A DNA stretch of 8,883 nt from IMG/VR virus record IMGVR_UViG_2667527918_000004; one strand, 5' to 3'. Positions 1,809-8,883 of the stretch are shown here, in pieces; position 1 is the first letter of the stretch; the number at the start of each line of letters is the position of its first letter. A program made the translations under genes and the position numbers. A model generated the notes under the pieces. That model worked only from the letters and a program-made list of their open reading frames with translations, made no database searches and was not told the origin of the DNA. The stretch comes from a virus (taxonomy: Duplodnaviria; Heunggongvirae; Uroviricota; Caudoviricetes).

Positions 1809-2837
1809 TTATTTCACCTGCACCACCACAAACTCATCCGGATCCGGCAGCACCATCAGCGGCGCGGACTGCGTCATGGTGAATTCACGCGCCGGATCAC
1901 CCACGGTCAGCCAGTGTTTCGGATAACGGGAAGACGCCACCACGCCTTCAGACAATGCCTGCGCATCCTGAATGGCACCGTAGCAACGAATACCCTCTGC
2001 GGCCGTATTTCCCAGTACCAGTGTGCCGTCCGGCAGATAACGTTTTTCGGTACCGTCCTCTGCCACATAGGACGTTTTTGCCACCACGATTGCCAGATCA
2101 CCATAATACCCTTTGAAGGACACCACCGCCCCCAGGTCTTTCACTGCCGTTTCCAGCTGTGAATTTGAGCCACGACGGGTATCCAGTTTTTCGCGGAACA
2201 GCTTAAAGCCATTCAGCAGACGCCAGACCTTACCATCCATAATGGCAATATTGATGGTGCCGGAAGCAAAATCACAGTACGCATCCAGATCATGCGTCGG
2301 ATCAAAGGTATCGCGGTCCTGAGCGCTCCACTCCGTCCCTCCTGCCTGCGTAATGTTATTTCCCACCGACCGGCCAAAATCGACCTCAACAGTTTCAAAC
2401 TGCTCTCCTTCCATGGTGTATTTGCCATACAGCACGGCATTCACCGCCTGCATCTCTTCCACCTGGACAATGGCGTGCTCTTCCTGTTTGAGGTTATCGG
2501 TGATGATACGCAGGCGACGGTAAGCCGGGCCGTTCAGCTGGGCCGGATCTTCACCGGGAAGACGCTCCACCGCCTGCTGGTAATTAAATTCGTGTTTCGG
2601 CTTAACGTAGCCCGGGCGCAGTACACGAGTTTCACCGCCACGGTGACGCAACACCTTTCCTTCAACAACCGGGGAGACATAGGCCGCCACCGGCGTTTTT
2701 CCGGTAATTTTGTCCAGCATTACCTCTTCGGTATGGAAATTCACCGTACGGCGGAAAAACAGCTCCAGAAACAGCGCACGAAATTTAACTTTTTGTTCGG
2801 TATAACCGAGTAACTGGCGGGTCGTAAACAATCCCAT
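1809..2837 (-). CDS. E: major capsid protein, lambda gpE-like
   Basis: 342-aa ORF, near lambda gpE length (341 aa as recalled). Long collinear matches: PGYVKPKHE, AYRR.RII, QVEEMQAV.AVL.GKYTM.GE, NNITQ.GGTEWS, KLDTRRGSNS.LETAVKDLG, LGNT, RYPK.W.T.GDPAREFTM.QSAPLM. ATG at 2837 with AAGGAA about 8 nt upstream. Confidence 0.95.
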   Translation of the reverse strand: MGLFTTRQLLGYTEQKVKFRALFLELFFRRTVNFHTEEVMLDKITGKTPVAAYVSPVVEGKVLRHRGGETRVLRPGYVKPKHEFNYQQAVERLPGEDPAQLNGPAYRRLRIITDNLKQEEHAIVQVEEMQAVNAVLYGKYTMEGEQFETVEVDFGRSVGNNITQAGGTEWSAQDRDTFDPTHDLDAYCDFASGTINIAIMDGKVWRLLNGFKLFREKLDTRRGSNSQLETAVKDLGAVVSFKGYYGDLAIVVAKTSYVAEDGTEKRYLPDGTLVLGNTAAEGIRCYGAIQDAQALSEGVVASSRYPKHWLTVGDPAREFTMTQSAPLMVLPDPDEFVVVQVK

Positions 2838-2894
2838 AAATCAGTTCCTTTCATTCAGAAATCAGTCAGGCTACCGCAGTGACCTGATAAAATG

Positions 2895-3242
2895 TTACGG
2901 CAGCGCTGCGTGACTCAGGGCACTGCCGGCAAAGGCATTCGCCTTTTTGTGTGTATCCACTCTCTCAGGCCAGTGGATGGCCTCCGTCGCAAAGGTCCCC
3001 GACTTGTAATACGTCAGCACCGTCTCTGTACCTTCAAGCGGCAGTACCAGTATGCCAACCACATGGCCTGCCTTCTGTCCGTCCCAGACCACCAGTTTCC
3101 CGGTATCCTCATCCAGCATCAGGGGCGTCAGAGCCGGTGTTGCCGAGGAAATCCCGCTGCAGCCTGTGGCGGTATGGGCCGGATCATTACCGGCAAAAAT
3201 ACGTACTTCCGCACGCTGTTCAGTGATGGTTTTCGTTACCAT
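2895..3242 (-). CDS. D: head decoration protein, lambda gpD-like
   Basis: 115-aa ORF. Motifs DPAHTAT, TPLMLD, KLV.WDG, VGIL, YKSGTF, AFAG match recalled lambda gpD. ATG at 3242 with GAGG about 10 nt upstream. Sits between C and E as in lambda. Confidence 0.9.
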   Translation of the reverse strand: MVTKTITEQRAEVRIFAGNDPAHTATGCSGISSATPALTPLMLDEDTGKLVVWDGQKAGHVVGILVLPLEGTETVLTYYKSGTFATEAIHWPERVDTHKKANAFAGSALSHAALP

Positions 3243-3278
3243 ATTGTAAAAACCTCATATTGATGGTCAGCACTGACT

Positions 3279-4163
3279 TCATGGCATGGCCATGAGCATT
3301 TTCACGTCCGCATCACCGTCTGCTGACGTCTGTGGCACGCCACCCTGTACCGCTGCCGGTGAATGGTTCGCCATGAAATGTTCAAACATGGCGGGTGTGG
3401 GTGGNNNNNNNNNNNNNNNNNNNNNNNNNNNNNNNNNNNNNNNNNNNNNNNNNNNNNNNNNNNNNNNNNNNNNNNNNNNNNNNNNNNNNNNNNNNNNNNN
3501 NNNNNNNNNNNNNNNNNNNNNNNNNNNNNNNNNNNNNNNNNNNNNNNNNNNNAGTTTTTCAGCCTGCGCCTCTGCCCCTTTTGCCTCATCCAGGGCCATA
3601 ATCTGATCACGAAGTGAGGGTCCGGCATTCGCCTGCGGTGAAGCAGCCAGAATCGGACGGGCTTTTTCCACCGTCATCTCCGGCATCGCCGCCAGCGTTG
3701 CCGCCAGTTGTTCACGTCCTTTCGCCTCTTCACATGCCATAATGCGATCGGCTTCACTCTGCGCAGATACACCAGATTGTTGCGGTGCCGCCACGGCCAG
3801 AATCGCCCGGGCCTGCTCAACGCTCATACCCTGTTGCCCTGCCAGCATCGTGGCCAGTTGTTCACGTCCTTTCGCTTCCTGACACGTCAGGATCCCCATC
3901 ACTCGCTGGTTCTCCTGCGCGGCAGCCTCCGTTGCAGTTAATTGCGGCATAGTGCCTCCTGTATCGTGTGTGTTCAGCGTCGCAGCCATCACGCTGATGG
4001 CGTCCGACGCATTGATTAATTCATCCGCCAGTTCGGCCTCAATACCGGACTGACCTTCAAAAACGGCGGCCTCTGTTCCCATAACCGCATCCACAGATAA
4101 ACCGGTATACATCGCCACTTTTTCAGCAAACATCCGGCGCGCCGCATCAATGCGCTGCTGCAT
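3279..4163 (-). CDS. possible nested in-frame scaffolding protein (lambda Nu3-like), translated from an internal start of the C frame
   Basis: Inference from lambda, where Nu3 is the C-terminal third of the C reading frame started internally. Candidate in-frame ATGs at 4161..4163 (M231) and 4131..4133 (M241) lie near the region aligned to the lambda Nu3 start. Neither has a convincing Shine-Dalgarno sequence. Confidence 0.3.
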   Translation of the reverse strand: MQQRIDAARRMFAEKVAMYTGLSVDAVMGTEAAVFEGQSGIEAELADELINASDAISVMAATLNTHDTGGTMPQLTATEAAAQENQRVMGILTCQEAKGREQLATMLAGQQGMSVEQARAILAVAAPQQSGVSAQSEADRIMACEEAKGREQLAATLAAMPEMTVEKARPILAASPQANAGPSLRDQIMALDEAKGAEAQAEKXXXXXXXXXXXXXXXXXXXXXXXXXXXXXXXXXXXXXXXXXXXXXXXXXXPPTPAMFEHFMANHSPAAVQGGVPQTSADGDADVKMLMAMP

Positions 4164-4853
4164 GTCCTGGCGAACCTTTGCTGGCAGGGATTCAAACTGA
4201 TTGCCATCCACCTTGTGCGATCCGGCGTAAATCAGCGTGATATCCACACCGGCCTGTGCCAGATGACCGGCATAGCTGACATGGCCCATCATCACCCCAA
4301 TGGAGCCGATACGGGATGTCTGGGTAACCAGCCGTCGGGAGCAGGCCGATGCCAGTAACATGGCGGCTGAACAGGCCGTGTCATTGCACAGTGCCCAGAC
4401 AGGCTTCAGCTGCCGGAGACGGTAAATCATGTCAGCGCAGTCAAACGCGCCGGTGGCCTGCCCGCCAGAACTGTCAATGTCCAGCAGTACGCCCCGTACC
4501 TGAGTGTCCGCCATTGCCTGCTGAAGACAGGCGACAATGCCGTCATAGCCAGTCATTCCGGAAAATGGCCGCATGCCACCCAGCCGGTGTACCAGCGTGC
4601 CGGTCACCGGCAGTACAGCAATACCGTTCACCACCCGGTAAACACGGGCAGGTCGTTTGCCTCCGGCCATGTACTCGTCCGTTTCAGCCAGCATCCCGGG
4701 AGCGTCAAGCTGTACCTGCTGTTGCGGTACCGAAAGGCTTGCTGCGCCCATCTCACGCCCGAGCGCGCAAAAGAAAACCCGCGCATAGGCGGGCTCCAGA
4801 AGCAGCGGCTCATTGAATGCCGCAGCGATAATATGTGAAAGATTACGTCTCAC
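3279..4853 (-). CDS. C: head maturation protease / minor capsid protein C (S49 peptidase family), lambda gpC-like, with C-terminal Nu3-type scaffold region; interrupted by a 148-N gap
   Basis: N-terminal 300 aa collinear with recalled lambda gpC (AFNEPL.LEPAYARVFFCAL, NGIAVLPV.GTLV, SGMTGY.GI, GAFDCAD.I, KPVWAL.ND..CSA..LLASA.SRRLVTQT.R.GSIGVMM.H, ITLIY.GSHKVDGN, GLADEL.N..DAI.VM). GTG start at 4851..4853 with GGAGA about 10 nt upstream, overlapping the end of B by 11 nt. The reading frame is continuous across the N-run only if the stated gap length is taken literally. Confidence 0.85.
   Translation of the reverse strand: MRRNLSHIIAAAFNEPLLLEPAYARVFFCALGREMGAASLSVPQQQVQLDAPGMLAETDEYMAGGKRPARVYRVVNGIAVLPVTGTLVHRLGGMRPFSGMTGYDGIVACLQQAMADTQVRGVLLDIDSSGGQATGAFDCADMIYRLRQLKPVWALCNDTACSAAMLLASACSRRLVTQTSRIGSIGVMMGHVSYAGHLAQAGVDITLIYAGSHKVDGNQFESLPAKVRQDMQQRIDAARRMFAEKVAMYTGLSVDAVMGTEAAVFEGQSGIEAELADELINASDAISVMAATLNTHDTGGTMPQLTATEAAAQENQRVMGILTCQEAKGREQLATMLAGQQGMSVEQARAILAVAAPQQSGVSAQSEADRIMACEEAKGREQLAATLAAMPEMTVEKARPILAASPQANAGPSLRDQIMALDEAKGAEAQAEKXXXXXXXXXXXXXXXXXXXXXXXXXXXXXXXXXXXXXXXXXXXXXXXXXXPPTPAMFEHFMANHSPAAVQGGVPQTSADGDADVKMLMAMP
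3405..3552. other. assembly gap (148 N)
   Basis: Uninterrupted run of N inside the C gene, directly adjacent to the tandem-repeat region. Confidence 0.99.
3553..3900 (-). repeat. diverged tandem repeat, period about 141-150 nt, at least 3 copies (third copy runs into the N gap); encodes a repeated 47-50 aa unit in the C/Nu3 scaffold region
   Basis: Exact 23-mer gccagttgttcacgtcctttcgc at 3703..3725 and 3853..3875 (150 nt apart). Shared blocks gccataat.{2}gatc and ccagaatcg..cgggc between the copies at 3553..3700 and 3701..3850. Protein repeats ..C.EAKGREQLA..LA......VE.AR.ILA...PQ at residues about 318-367, 368-417 and 418 onward. Confidence 0.85.
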
Positions 4854-6436
4854 GTGATGTTGTCTCCTCTTCCGGCCTGCGACTCTCCGCTATCTGCTGC
4901 TGATACGCCTGGGCTATCCACACCGGACGTGAGAGTCCGGCTTTTTCGCGCTCTGCGGATTCCCTGACCTGCTGGCGGAAAATGTCCTGATAATCTTCGC
5001 CCATCAGTGCCAGTTCTTTCTCATACGTGCTCAGTCCGGCCTCAATGCGCATCACCGATTCCTGGACCTCCTTGAGCCCGTCAATGGCCATTCTTCCGGA
5101 GCTAATCCACTCTGCCCGTGACCAGGCTGAACGCGCCTGGTAAAAATCAAAACGCGCCCGTGGCGGACGAATAATCCCCCGAAGAAGCGCCTCTTCCAGC
5201 CAGCAGGAAAACATCTGCGTGGCCAGCCGGGCCGCAATAAATTTTCGCCGCCCCATAAAATAGCGCCACGACTCATTGGCGGAGGCGCGGGCACTTGAGT
5301 AACTGACCTTCGAGTAATCACGGGACAACTGTTCGTAGGAAACGCCAAGACCGGCTGCAATATACCGCAGCAGCGCCTGTTCAAGCGCCGAAAATCCATT
5401 GTCTGAATCCTGCGCTGTCTGCAGGTTCAGCGCATCGCCAGGAAAAAAGGTGCGGAATTTTAACACCGCCCAGCGTCACGTTATTCGTGTCATACCAGCG
5501 GGTGAACTTCTCCAGAATATTAATAAGCGGATTATCCTGCTGACCTTGCGGTGCCCCCGCGATATATTCAAATGCCTTTTCGGTATCAAGTTCACTTTCG
5601 ATTGTGGCTGCATACATCGCCTTCACAATGGCCGACTGAAGCTGCGTGGCCTGCAGGGAGTCCAGCATCTTCATCCGCTCCATTACGCTGTAAAACTGAT
5701 TAGCCCCACGGGTCTGCCCGTCCTCCACCGGCTCAAAAATATGCAGCATGGCCGGACGCCCGGTGGGAAGCTCACGCGGGATCCGCTCCCAGCGTCCGGC
5801 ACCAGAGAACGGAAAATCATCCTCACAGATATGGTACGCAATCGCCCGCCCATACCGATCGACCTCAACCCCGGCCCGCAGAAAGTGGTTCCCCATACCG
5901 TGTCCTGGCGTGTCCACCCGTTTCGGACTCACGGCTTTAAAACGCGTACGGAATAACTGCGTGGTTTCCGTATCCCAGACCGGCTGCACAAAGATTTCGC
6001 CGTTAAAGGCATGCACGCCCACCCCTTCACGGATAAATTCCGTAAACGTGCGTTTCCCTTCCACGTCGATCTCGCCAAACATTCCTTCTGCGTATTCCGA
6101 CCAGGCTGCTTCCACCTCCCCGACAAAACTTTTTGCCGTGGTCTCCCGCATCCCCAGCCAACGCCAGTTCAGACGGTAGCTGATAAGAAACATGTGCCCG
6201 ACGATATGATCCTTATGCAGGGCCACCGCATTAGCCGCGATACCGTTATTGCGCACCAGATCATCTGCCCGGGCATTCCCCAGACGCAATGCAGGCAACA
6301 GGGCCGCATCGGCACTCTGCGCCGGTGGTAACCACTCTGCCATTTGCCCGCCAAATCCTGCGCCGCCTCCGTTGTAGCTGAGACTCTCACGAAGCGGAAC
6401 GCCGTTCACATCAATCAGGACAGGCGTTCGTTTCAT
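4843..6436 (-). CDS. B: portal protein, lambda gpB-like, interrupted by an apparent +1 frameshift in a T6 run (complement of 5443..5448)
   Basis: Two adjacent minus-strand ORFs (5381..6436 and 4843..5466) are together collinear with recalled lambda gpB: DAALLP, GNARADDLVRNNG.AANA, RTFT..IREGV..HAFNGE.FVQ, VSPKR, FEPVEDGQTRGAN.FYSVME.MKMLD.LQ.TQLQSAIVKAMYAATIESELDT in the first; PGD.LNLQTAQD.DNG, LRYIAAGLGVSYEQLSR, ARASANESW.YFMGRRKF, GRMAIDGLKEVQE.VM.IEAGLSTYEKE in the second. ATG at 6434..6436 overlaps the W stop (ATGA), with GGGAGTGAGG upstream. Confidence 0.85.
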
Positions 6437-6636
6437 AACCTCACTCCCAGCGGTCGGCGGCGTCGGGTCGTACCCAGAACCGACTCCGCATCGTTGATCG
6501 CACGGTTAAGCTCATTCAGGGACGCTGCCGTATATTCGATCCTGCGACCGTCTTTCTGTACCGACACAACCCGTTTACCGGTTAATAAATCAAGGCGCGC
6601 CTGACGCAGCGCCTGCAGTTCAGCGACTGTAACCAT
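6433..6636 (-). CDS. W: head-tail joining protein W, lambda gpW-like
   Basis: 67-aa ORF. Core LL/MTGKRV..VQKDGRR.E.TA.S and RRRR near the C-terminus match recalled lambda gpW (68 aa). The A stop TGA is directly followed by the W ATG (TGAATG), with GGAGGAG upstream. Confidence 0.9.
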   Translation of the reverse strand: MVTVAELQALRQARLDLLTGKRVVSVQKDGRRIEYTAASLNELNRAINDAESVLGTTRRRRPLGVRL

Positions 6637-8547
6637 TCACTCCTCCGGACAGCTTCGCTGCCAGTTCTTCAAGGGTCGGTTGTGCAGTTGCATCCTTGCG
6701 GGATGCAACTGCACAGCCAGATCAAGTTGCCAGCGTTGCACGGACACACGTAATGCCGCATAGGCATACACCAGGCAGTCCAGCGCTTCGTTACGCCGCT
6801 TTTTGTTATCCCACAACAGACGCATCTTTCCTTTTTCCCACTTTTCCACCAGTTCCTCCGCCACCAGTTGTTGTGCCTCTGTCTGCGAAAAAATCTCCGG
6901 ATTATCAGGAAAGCGGATGGCATACGATGTGGCCTCATTCACAGGGGTGGGATCGGCCTTCATTCGGGCATAGAGAATTTCTTTTGCGGTATCCGTCCCC
7001 ACCTCACACAGATACACACCCCGCTGATTGCGGGTTTTCGGCATGGTGATCACCGGCTTGCCATAGACAGAGGCACCTTTTACCGGCAGTACCCGGAAAA
7101 TACCGTGTTTTTTTGACCTCTGATACACGATTTCGCCATCGATCCCCCCGATATCCCAGCAGACACGGGAAATGGTCATTTCGGTACCGTCTGCATGGCG
7201 GTATTTTTTATTGATCGCCGCATCCACACGTAACAGCGTCTCTTCCTCATCAGGACGTCCCATGATGATGATTTTATCCACCAGAAAGGCTTCCTCTCCC
7301 GGAGCCCACCCCCAGACATACATCTCAAAACGGTTTCGCTGCGAGTCAATGCCCGCCGTCAGATAAACCACCCGGACAGGCACCGTTGCCGTGTAAGGCA
7401 CAACCTTATCCATCAGTACCTGGTGATCGAGTTTTTCGCCCACGGCCTCTTCCCAGGTCTCGCCCAGCGTGGTGTTCACAAAAGTTTTCACGCCGTTGGG
7501 ATCTTTCAGTGCATCCAGCCAGTCACAGACTATCTGTACCCTGGTGGTGAACGGACTGTACGCCGTCCATATATGGAAAGTGATGGAGCGCGGCGGCGGA
7601 ATTTCATTACCCGAAGCACTGAAAAACGTCAGACCGTCACACGTCCACATCCCGGTATTGTCACAAATCCAGCGCCCCCCGGTCTGATCAAGTTCAGACT
7701 GACGGATCACGCAGCCATTATGTTCACACAGGTAATACACCGTTTCCGGTTTACCCTTCTCCCATTTCAGGCCAAACGACGTCGCATCATCGCCAAACTT
7801 CAGATACTGCTCCTCCCCGCAATGAGGGCAAGGGACATAAAACCGCATGAAATGCGCAGATTCATTCGCAGCTTTTTCAATCTGACAGGAGCCTTTAATT
7901 TTTGGCGTTGAACCGCGTATGGATTTTGGCCATACCGAACCTTCAATACGTTTATCGCCAAGCAGTGTTGGCGAACCTTCTTTTTCCACATCCGGTTCAA
8001 ACGAGGAGAGTTCGTCATAGCAGACCACATCGACAGATTTTTCACGGTAGTTTTTGGCAGCAGCACCACCCAAACACCAGAACCCCACACCAGAGGAAAA
8101 ACGCTTCAGTGTGAGCGTATTATCCCGGTGTTTCCGGCCCAGCCAGGGAGAAAGTTTTTTCAGGCAAGGAACATCACGAATTGTTGCTTCCACGTGAGAC
8201 TTCATAAAATCTTCAGCAGCTGAGTCCGTCGGCTGAAAAAGAAGAGTGTTGCGGGATTTGTGCTCAATAAAATACCCGATCACACCAAGCACCATTTTTG
8301 TATAACCAACACGGGCAGATTTAATCAGGTTAACTGTACGAATCTCGTCATTGCCCATGCAGTTCATGATGGCGACCTGAAACTGCAGCGTTTTCCATTC
8401 CCCCTCACCGTATGACGATTCTTTAGGCAGGTAATAATTTTGATCGGCCCATTCTACAGCCGTCACCGGCAATACCCTGACCAGTGGCTGCAGTGCGATA
8501 GTGACTGCCACCATCATATTACTCAGTTGTTGTTCTGATATATTCAT
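6637..8547 (-). CDS. A: terminase large subunit, lambda gpA-like
   Basis: Extensive collinear matches to recalled lambda gpA: MNIS start, TAVEWAD.NYYLPKES, KSARVGY.KM.LGV..YFIEHK.RNTL, GKKHRDNTLT.KRF, FWCLGG.AAKNYREKSVDV, GSPT.LGDKRIEGSVWPKSIRGSTPK, HFMRF.V.CPHCGEEQYLKFGD, FHIWTAYSPFT, KTFVNTTLGETWE, YLTAGIDSQ, GASVYGKPV, LWD.KKRRNEALDC. I place the start at ATG 8545..8547 (MNIS...) rather than the ORF-track TTG at 8604. It overlaps the end of Nu1 by 29 nt, as in lambda. Confidence 0.95.
   Translation of the reverse strand: MNISEQQLSNMMVAVTIALQPLVRVLPVTAVEWADQNYYLPKESSYGEGEWKTLQFQVAIMNCMGNDEIRTVNLIKSARVGYTKMVLGVIGYFIEHKSRNTLLFQPTDSAAEDFMKSHVEATIRDVPCLKKLSPWLGRKHRDNTLTLKRFSSGVGFWCLGGAAAKNYREKSVDVVCYDELSSFEPDVEKEGSPTLLGDKRIEGSVWPKSIRGSTPKIKGSCQIEKAANESAHFMRFYVPCPHCGEEQYLKFGDDATSFGLKWEKGKPETVYYLCEHNGCVIRQSELDQTGGRWICDNTGMWTCDGLTFFSASGNEIPPPRSITFHIWTAYSPFTTRVQIVCDWLDALKDPNGVKTFVNTTLGETWEEAVGEKLDHQVLMDKVVPYTATVPVRVVYLTAGIDSQRNRFEMYVWGWAPGEEAFLVDKIIIMGRPDEEETLLRVDAAINKKYRHADGTEMTISRVCWDIGGIDGEIVYQRSKKHGIFRVLPVKGASVYGKPVITMPKTRNQRGVYLCEVGTDTAKEILYARMKADPTPVNEATSYAIRFPDNPEIFSQTEAQQLVAEELVEKWEKGKMRLLWDNKKRRNEALDCLVYAYAALRVSVQRWQLDLAVQLHPARMQLHNRPLKNWQRSCPEE
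6681..6715. repeat. perfect 15-bp inverted repeat (hairpin with 5-nt loop) inside the 3' end of A
   Basis: tgtgcagttgcatcc (6681..6695), loop ttgcg (6696..6700), ggatgcaactgcaca (6701..6715). Every position of the arms is Watson-Crick complementary. It lies 42 nt upstream of the A stop, on the minus strand. Confidence 0.8.
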
Positions 8548-8842
8548 CGAGTAAATCCGGTAATTTATCCCCCGCACGCGCGCACTGATTCGCTCCCTTA
8601 GCAATAAGGATTTTCAGATGATCAATATGACGCGGCGTTAAATCCGGGAACTGTCGTTGCATGGACAAAGGAATGGAGTCAAGCGTACTGGATAAAGCCA
8701 TCGCCAGCTTACTAAGGGCAAAAATACAAAATCCGGTATCGATAAGATTTCCTTTTGACACCTGATTTTTTAACTGCTGTGCGACAGCCTGTTCTGCGGT
8801 CAGTTCCCATCTGGCAATGAGTAGTTTGAGGTGTACTGGCAA
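8519..8842 (-). CDS. nu1: terminase small subunit, lambda Nu1-like, C-terminal (gpA-interacting) half only; N-terminal DNA-binding half not encoded in frame
   Basis: 107-aa ORF aligning to the C-terminal ~100 aa of recalled lambda Nu1 (LT..QA.AQ.LKN, FC.F.LS..A...S.LD..PLS.QR.FP.L..RH.D.LK, LP.LL.EYI). The first in-frame start is TTG at 8840..8842, and an in-frame stop (TAG, complement of 8852..8854) lies 3 codons upstream. Confidence 0.75.
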   Translation of the reverse strand: MPVHLKLLIARWELTAEQAVAQQLKNQVSKGNLIDTGFCIFALSKLAMALSSTLDSIPLSMQRQFPDLTPRHIDHLKILIAKGANQCARAGDKLPDLLDEYIRTTTE

Positions 8843-8883
8843 TAGCGGACACTACCATTTGTTCTTTTTTTAAGCAGCCATCT

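Follow-up and report, generated by a model that had tools for sequence, protein, structure and literature searches.

A nu1 fragment in a defective lambda-like prophage of Shigella flexneri, probably left by IS600 insertion and a later IS600-associated deletion

The Qin and DLP12 prophages of Escherichia coli K-12 carry nohA and nohD, respectively, which encode full-length Nu1 homologues beside a truncated A gene. The locus described here is likewise a Nu1-type gene stranded in a defective lambdoid prophage unable to package, but it differs in that nu1 itself is truncated, cut by an insertion sequence (IS). Such genes encode the small terminase subunit (TerS), which in lambda-like phages binds the R sequences of cosB through an N-terminal winged helix-turn-helix and binds the large subunit (TerL) through its C-terminal region (PMC4669245). 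The element in question, IS600, is one of five IS that have expanded in all Shigella species, whose reference chromosomes contain 229-348 IS copies that break up genes and bring about deletions (Hawkey et al. 2020, PMC7373316), and IS-mediated rearrangements, one of them attributed to IS600, are described in strain 8401 (PMC1550401). The present case matches the IS600 disruptions and deletions reported for Shigella in element, in host group, in the 3-bp target duplication of the sister allele and in outcome, first a pseudogene and then loss of neighbouring DNA (PMC7373316), and differs from them in that a prophage gene rather than a metabolic gene was hit, and in nothing else of substance. A literature search returned general accounts of IS600 and of IS-mediated Shigella decay and no description of this locus by name. 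Disruption of a prophage nu1 by IS600 is nonetheless an ordinary event that is already annotated in public genomes, with its product already deposited, and it carries little biological weight of its own, being a further instance of gene disruption by an IS in a Shigella genome with hundreds of IS copies.

The window (the whole stretch of DNA that was analysed, 8,883 nucleotides) carries on its minus strand a lambda-like head/packaging module, with homologues of U, Z, FII, FI, E, D, C, B, W and A, and at its right edge a Nu1-like open reading frame (ORF). This ORF (8842..8519, minus strand) encodes 107 aa from its first start, a TTG at 8842-8840, upstream of which the strand reads TAG (8854-8852) and then TGT CCG CTA, so that the Nu1 frame is closed three codons before its first start, just as the original prediction had read it. 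The same prediction held that the ORF corresponds only to the C-terminal ~100 residues of Nu1, which is borne out by Pfam, where ORF residues 10-88 match Phage_Nu1 (PF07471) over profile positions 85-163 of 164 only (E = 5.6e-19), and by an alignment in which lambda Nu1 pairs with the ORF in its C-terminal part only, with 43% identity over the aligned part. Two features expected of a Nu1-type small subunit are found: the end of the remnant at 8519 overlaps the start of the A homologue at 8547, and the central/C-terminal region responsible for self-assembly and gpA binding is present. A third, the N-terminal domain that recognizes cosB, is absent, as codons 1-67 are nowhere in the window, which makes the 107-aa ORF a fragment of a PF07471 member and not a functional one. 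It is best read, from its sequence, as a pseudogene fragment.

What lies upstream of this fragment is the right end of IS600, an IS3-family element. Window positions 8883..8827 are identical at 57/57 positions to the right end of the copy in NZ_CP014583.1 (locus L004), for which RefSeq gives the annotation 'IS3-like element IS600 family transposase' and the note 'programmed frameshift'. The check for IS ends in the last bases of the window that had been proposed with the original prediction thus settles the cause of the truncation. The element in L004 is 1264 bp long and ends in ...CAGTACACCTCA; the window stops within it and holds its last 57 nt (8827..8883, minus strand), comprising the terminal inverted repeat (...GGTAGTGTCCGCTATTGCCAGTACACCTCA) and the 3' end of the transposase gene. 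Because the annotated coding sequence in L004 ends at locus position 2014, equivalent to window position 8870, the codons ATG GCT GCT TAA at 8870..8881 (minus strand) are the last three codons and the stop of the IS600 OrfAB transposase, an assignment with which the reading frame agrees. These codons had been placed in a frame other than that of the Nu1 ORF, wrongly, since 8881 and 8842 are 39 nt apart; the Nu1 frame is therefore closed twice, by this TAA and by the TAG at 8852..8854 (minus strand) in the inverted repeat, and it is both of the other minus-strand frames that are open across 8883..8843. The TAA, the TAG and the TTG 'start' all lie within the IS600 right end.

The assignment to IS600 is further supported by the distribution of the sequence. 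A search of complete E. coli genomes with 8883..8820 found 5457 places in 2772 genomes, at most 43 in any one genome and 873 on plasmids, all annotated as 'IS3-like element IS600 family transposase'. Among the Shigella loci discussed below, L007-L009, L011, L013 and L015 contain full 1264-bp IS600 copies (98.7-99.5% identity) that encode a transposase of 385 aa with HTH_Tnp_1 and rve domains, as befits a member of this group. The inverted repeats of the element read TGAGGT...ACCTCA, the right one being in the window and the left one outside it, where it is seen in L007-L016.

The chimeric nature of the window's end is indicated by a megablast search of complete E. coli genomes with 8883..8300, in which the query was split in two and no record spanned the junction (best coverage, 90%). 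One part, 8827..8300, matched lambdoid prophages with 99.2-99.8% identity, the match extending into an annotated 'terminase small subunit', and the first ~57 bases had separate matches in many places per genome. The closest intact relative is a prophage of E. coli FDAARGOS_943 (L001), which is 99.7% identical to 8827..5300 over 3.5 kb and whose small terminase gene consists of 169 contiguous codons (locus 2800-3309). Homology to the window starts at L001 position 3001, i.e. at codon 68. The nu1 remnant (8519..8827, minus strand) thus consists of codons 68-169 and the stop, or 102 of 169 aa, with the final nucleotide of IS600 serving as the first A of codon 68 (AAA) and the junction between this codon and the IS600 right inverted repeat lying at 8826/8827. 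The ORF as called mechanically (8519..8842, minus strand) adds to these 102 Nu1 codons the TTG and the next four codons (LPVHL), that is five residues derived from the inverted repeat. The claim that the N-terminal half of Nu1 is not contiguously encoded is therefore upheld, with homology starting at codon 68 and IS600 upstream. The family of the intact parent terS is a common one, 855 E. coli records covering at least 80% of the query.

An exact-pattern scan of genome contigs with a 50-mer spanning the junction located it in S. flexneri SFBU1023 and in the Shigella-like 'E. coli' ECMA0423, and a look-up of the exact 107-aa product yielded ten chromosomal loci that were analysed with 10 kb of flank (L007-L016). 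The exact product occurs on at least 343 contigs, all of them named Shigella flexneri, under names such as 'terminase small subunit [Shigella flexneri]' and with many 'partial' versions at contig ends. Since they are annotated from a start within an IS inverted repeat, these 107-aa database entries would be pseudogene fragments too. That a frameshift, or a sequencing or assembly error near 8850, conceals an in-frame N-terminal domain was one of the explanations offered originally, and the window does have an assembly defect elsewhere (148 N at 3405-3552). Yet no indel exists: IS600, with no nu1 in any frame, occupies the sequence upstream of 8827, nu1 homology breaks off abruptly at the IS end, and over 10 independent assemblies, complete genomes among them, share an identical junction. 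An error of this sort can be given hardly any credence.

How the junction may have arisen is best seen in two loci, termed type B, from S. flexneri 5 str. 8401 (CP000266.1, L014) and from UGYS01000001.1 (L016), in which a full-length Rz-like lysis gene is followed by an IS600 in inverted orientation and then, in order, by three small ORFs, cos, nu1 codons 1-67 and IS600. The cos region is 99% identical to that of L001, and codons 1-67, which lie directly to the left of IS600, are identical to it at 201/201 nt. IS600 itself is split in these loci by a nested element of ~1.3 kb. In both, the junctions read ...gaagagaAAC-IS600-AACtactc..., compared with gaagagAAACtactc in the intact sequence, and this presence of AAC on both sides of the element marks a simple insertion of IS600. 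A 3-bp target-site duplication is the length expected of IS600 and IS3-family elements, and comparison with L014 and L016 identifies the right-hand copy of AAC in the window at 8824..8826 (minus strand). The type B allele has the same right junction, 107-aa remnant, prophage and portal frameshift as the window, and differs in having kept cos, nu1 codons 1-67 and an intact large terminase gene A of 642 codons, whereas the lineage of the window would have undergone a later deletion and a frameshift in A.

Such a deletion is seen in the remaining loci (type A: L007-L013 and L015, plus L002/L003), whose right junction is identical to that of type B. On the left, IS600 adjoins codon 134 of Rz, with the IS's own TGA serving as stop. 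The flanks of the element lack a duplication (GGG versus AAC), as expected after a deletion, and neither cos nor nu1 5' sequence was found in the 10 kb upstream of IS600 in type A loci. Compared with L014, 3218 bp are missing (4222-7439, the inverted IS600 included) and, compared with E. coli RMDEC364 (L005), 2542 bp. That the right junction is common to both types argues for one ancestral insertion, followed by a deletion in type A. A single base at the left junction of type A also differs, GACGG[G]/TGAGG (L008 8748-8753) being found where intact Rz has GACGGAATC (L014 4217-4225); this G versus A beside the IS600 left end may be a single-nucleotide polymorphism or a footprint of the deletion event.

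These observations outline a model, to which we assign a probability of roughly 0.93 on the strength of the sequence comparisons, in which IS600 inserted between codons 67 and 68 of the small terminase gene of a lambda-like prophage of S. flexneri, now defective, duplicating AAC. A later IS600-associated deletion would then have removed everything from Rz codon 134 to the left end of IS600, i.e. the small ORFs, cosN/cosB and nu1 codons 1-67, leaving a pseudogene fragment. The deletion could have come about if the left IS end transposed intramolecularly into Rz or, alternatively, if a second, directly oriented IS600 inserted in Rz and homologous recombination followed; both routes lead to the same product and are indistinguishable from the present sequence. 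A deletion by recombination between the two IS600 copies present in 8401 was considered and dropped, because the second copy is inverted and lies ~450 bp downstream of the type A breakpoint in Rz, so that neither its orientation nor its position suits a deletion partner.

Whether the window's own genome has undergone this deletion turns on its allele, since the right junction is identical in types A and B and the window ends before the point that distinguishes them. It might thus be of type B, with cos and nu1 codons 1-67 still in place across IS600 and nothing deleted. This is improbable, however, as the window has the type A allele at 13/13 sites that set L008 (type A) apart from L014 (type B), including the 1-nt deletion that gives A 636 instead of 642 codons, and as it is identical at 5331/5331 positions to L007, L008, L010, L013 and L015, all of type A, compared with 12 mismatches and one indel relative to L014. 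On the basis of this 13/13 and 5331/5331 agreement, we infer from near-identical genomes that the genome beyond 8883, of which the window holds 57 IS bases, has the deleted, type A form. The original prediction had listed a deletion or recombination junction among its possible explanations, and this is the one that holds: 8826/8827 joins nu1 codon 68 to IS600, and a deletion would have followed in the window's lineage.

The lost DNA can be described from the intact relatives, which have a lambda-type cos in the 400 bp upstream of terS (L001 2575-2721), with GGGCGG... at the position of the lambda cohesive end and the conserved block TTTCaCTATTTATGAAAATTTT. Their cosB contains three R-like repeats, AACCGGACAT, the one proximal to cosN being inverted relative to the other two. 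The lambda-like upstream cos of these relatives and the overlap of nu1 with the start of the A homologue are points of likeness to lambda. No cos lies 5' of the Nu1-type gene in the window, whereas it is present in type B loci. With cos and nu1 codons 1-67 gone from this locus, the type A prophage would have neither a recognition site nor a recognition domain, and would consequently be unable to package its own DNA.

As for the lost 67 residues themselves, the corresponding sequences (L001 2800-3000; also in L005 and L014) have no match to the Nu1 profile and no Pfam family above threshold, the only hit being a sub-threshold one to Sigma70_r3 (E = 0.046), and a PDB sequence search with the lost N-terminus returned chance matches only (E > 0.5). 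Their position and the alignment to lambda Nu1 nevertheless suggest that they formed a helix-turn-helix domain. This would be the counterpart of the N-terminal DNA-binding domain of lambda gpNu1, which the remnant in the window lacks. Since this N-terminus finds no profile or PDB match and since the R-like repeats differ from the R sequences of lambda, the packaging specificity of the parent phage was probably different from that of lambda and 21. In this phage family, the interval between Rz and cos serves as a slot for variable cargo (morons): in RMDEC364 it contains a KilA-N gene and the toxin-antitoxin pair ParD/ParE (L005 2194-3424), and in FDAARGOS_943 it contains hypothetical genes and a DUF4406 gene instead.

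The 107-aa ORF is open, it overlaps the start of A as lambda nu1 does, and gene callers annotate it as a coding sequence in many genomes, all of which could be taken to mean that it is a naturally short or split small terminase subunit, with a functional C-terminal gpA-binding part and a DNA-binding part encoded separately, as had also been suggested originally. There is next to no chance that this is so. The IS600 inverted repeat supplies its start codon and first five residues, relatives that are ~99.7% identical encode a contiguous protein of 169 aa and, in 8401, the 5' part (the missing 201 nt) stands across the IS with a target duplication. In addition, cos is absent from type A loci and both the portal gene and A are frameshifted. 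Finally, a scan of both strands of 8400-8883 found no promoter-like or terminator-like site, and inspection of the sequence 5' of the TTG at 8842 revealed no Shine-Dalgarno-like motif. An outward IS promoter was also considered, on account of a -35-like TTGCCA in the IS600 inverted repeat, and dropped for want of an acceptable -10 at 16-18 nt.

Pseudogene fragment though the ORF seems to be, it keeps the regions for oligomerization and gpA binding and has none for cos binding, and one might imagine that, if expressed, it would act as a dominant-negative protein that poisons the terminase of superinfecting lambdoid phages. For this, a phage late transcript or an IS600 transposase transcript would have to read through, with translation from the TTG or an internal start, and the outcome would be a packaging block in superinfecting lambdoid phages with a compatible large subunit. 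The Rpp proteins of phage-inducible chromosomal islands (PICI), which redirect the TerS of helper phages (PMC6739421), offer a loose analogue. We regard this scenario as very doubtful, given that no promoter or ribosome-binding site was found and that A and the portal gene are frameshifted. A selection test on the remnant is unusable because its DNA is ~99.7% identical to that of intact relatives.

The truncation of nu1 is accompanied by decay elsewhere in the module. The A homologue (6637..8547, minus strand), which encodes the large terminase subunit, has 636 codons instead of the 642 found in intact relatives and type B, owing to a 1-nt deletion that, together with three clustered substitutions, is located at 6707-6711 relative to L001 and type B and is specific to type A. 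It alters the C-terminus of the protein, about the last 25-30 residues; in lambda, the C-terminal region of A contacts the prohead. The portal gene is split by an extra T at 5448 relative to L001 into ORFs of 351 aa (5381..6436) and 207 aa (4843..5466), both on the minus strand. This frameshift is common to all Shigella loci examined, of types A and B, which argues that it is old and real and not a sequencing error. The homologue of gene C (S49 protease/scaffold), by contrast with its relatives, contains a run of 148 N (3405-3552) where all related loci have 80 nt, and the ORF at 3279..4853 is inflated as a result (524 aa versus 501 aa in relatives). A repeat expansion in gene C (3403-3552, 150 versus 80 nt) was rejected, Tandem Repeats Finder having found nothing in what is a stretch of 148 N. 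Two or three mismatches beside the N run (3401, 3395) look like low-quality sequence. In SFBU1023 and ECMA0423 (L002/L003), A has a +1/-1 pair of indels 127 nt apart (window 7949, 7822) relative to the window and all other loci, and the ECMA0423 gene is called in two pieces of 201 and 397 aa; these indels may be long-read homopolymer errors or real further decay.

On the practical side, the locus may serve as a marker. A shared insertion that duplicated AAC and a lineage-specific deletion after it would constitute two ordered markers by which S. flexneri lineages can be told apart, with 8401-like strains on one side and those identical to the window on the other. Further IS elements have inserted into the IS600 in nu1, and their positions vary with the strain: at IS600 nt ~372-377 in ECMA0423/SFBU1023 (L003 1936-3224 / L012 7835-9123) and at nt ~181-184 in 8401 (L014 7624-8932), the nested elements being assigned as 'IS3 family'. 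An extra IS600 lies within L016, at 6344-7607. These insertions show that IS activity at the nu1 locus is ongoing.
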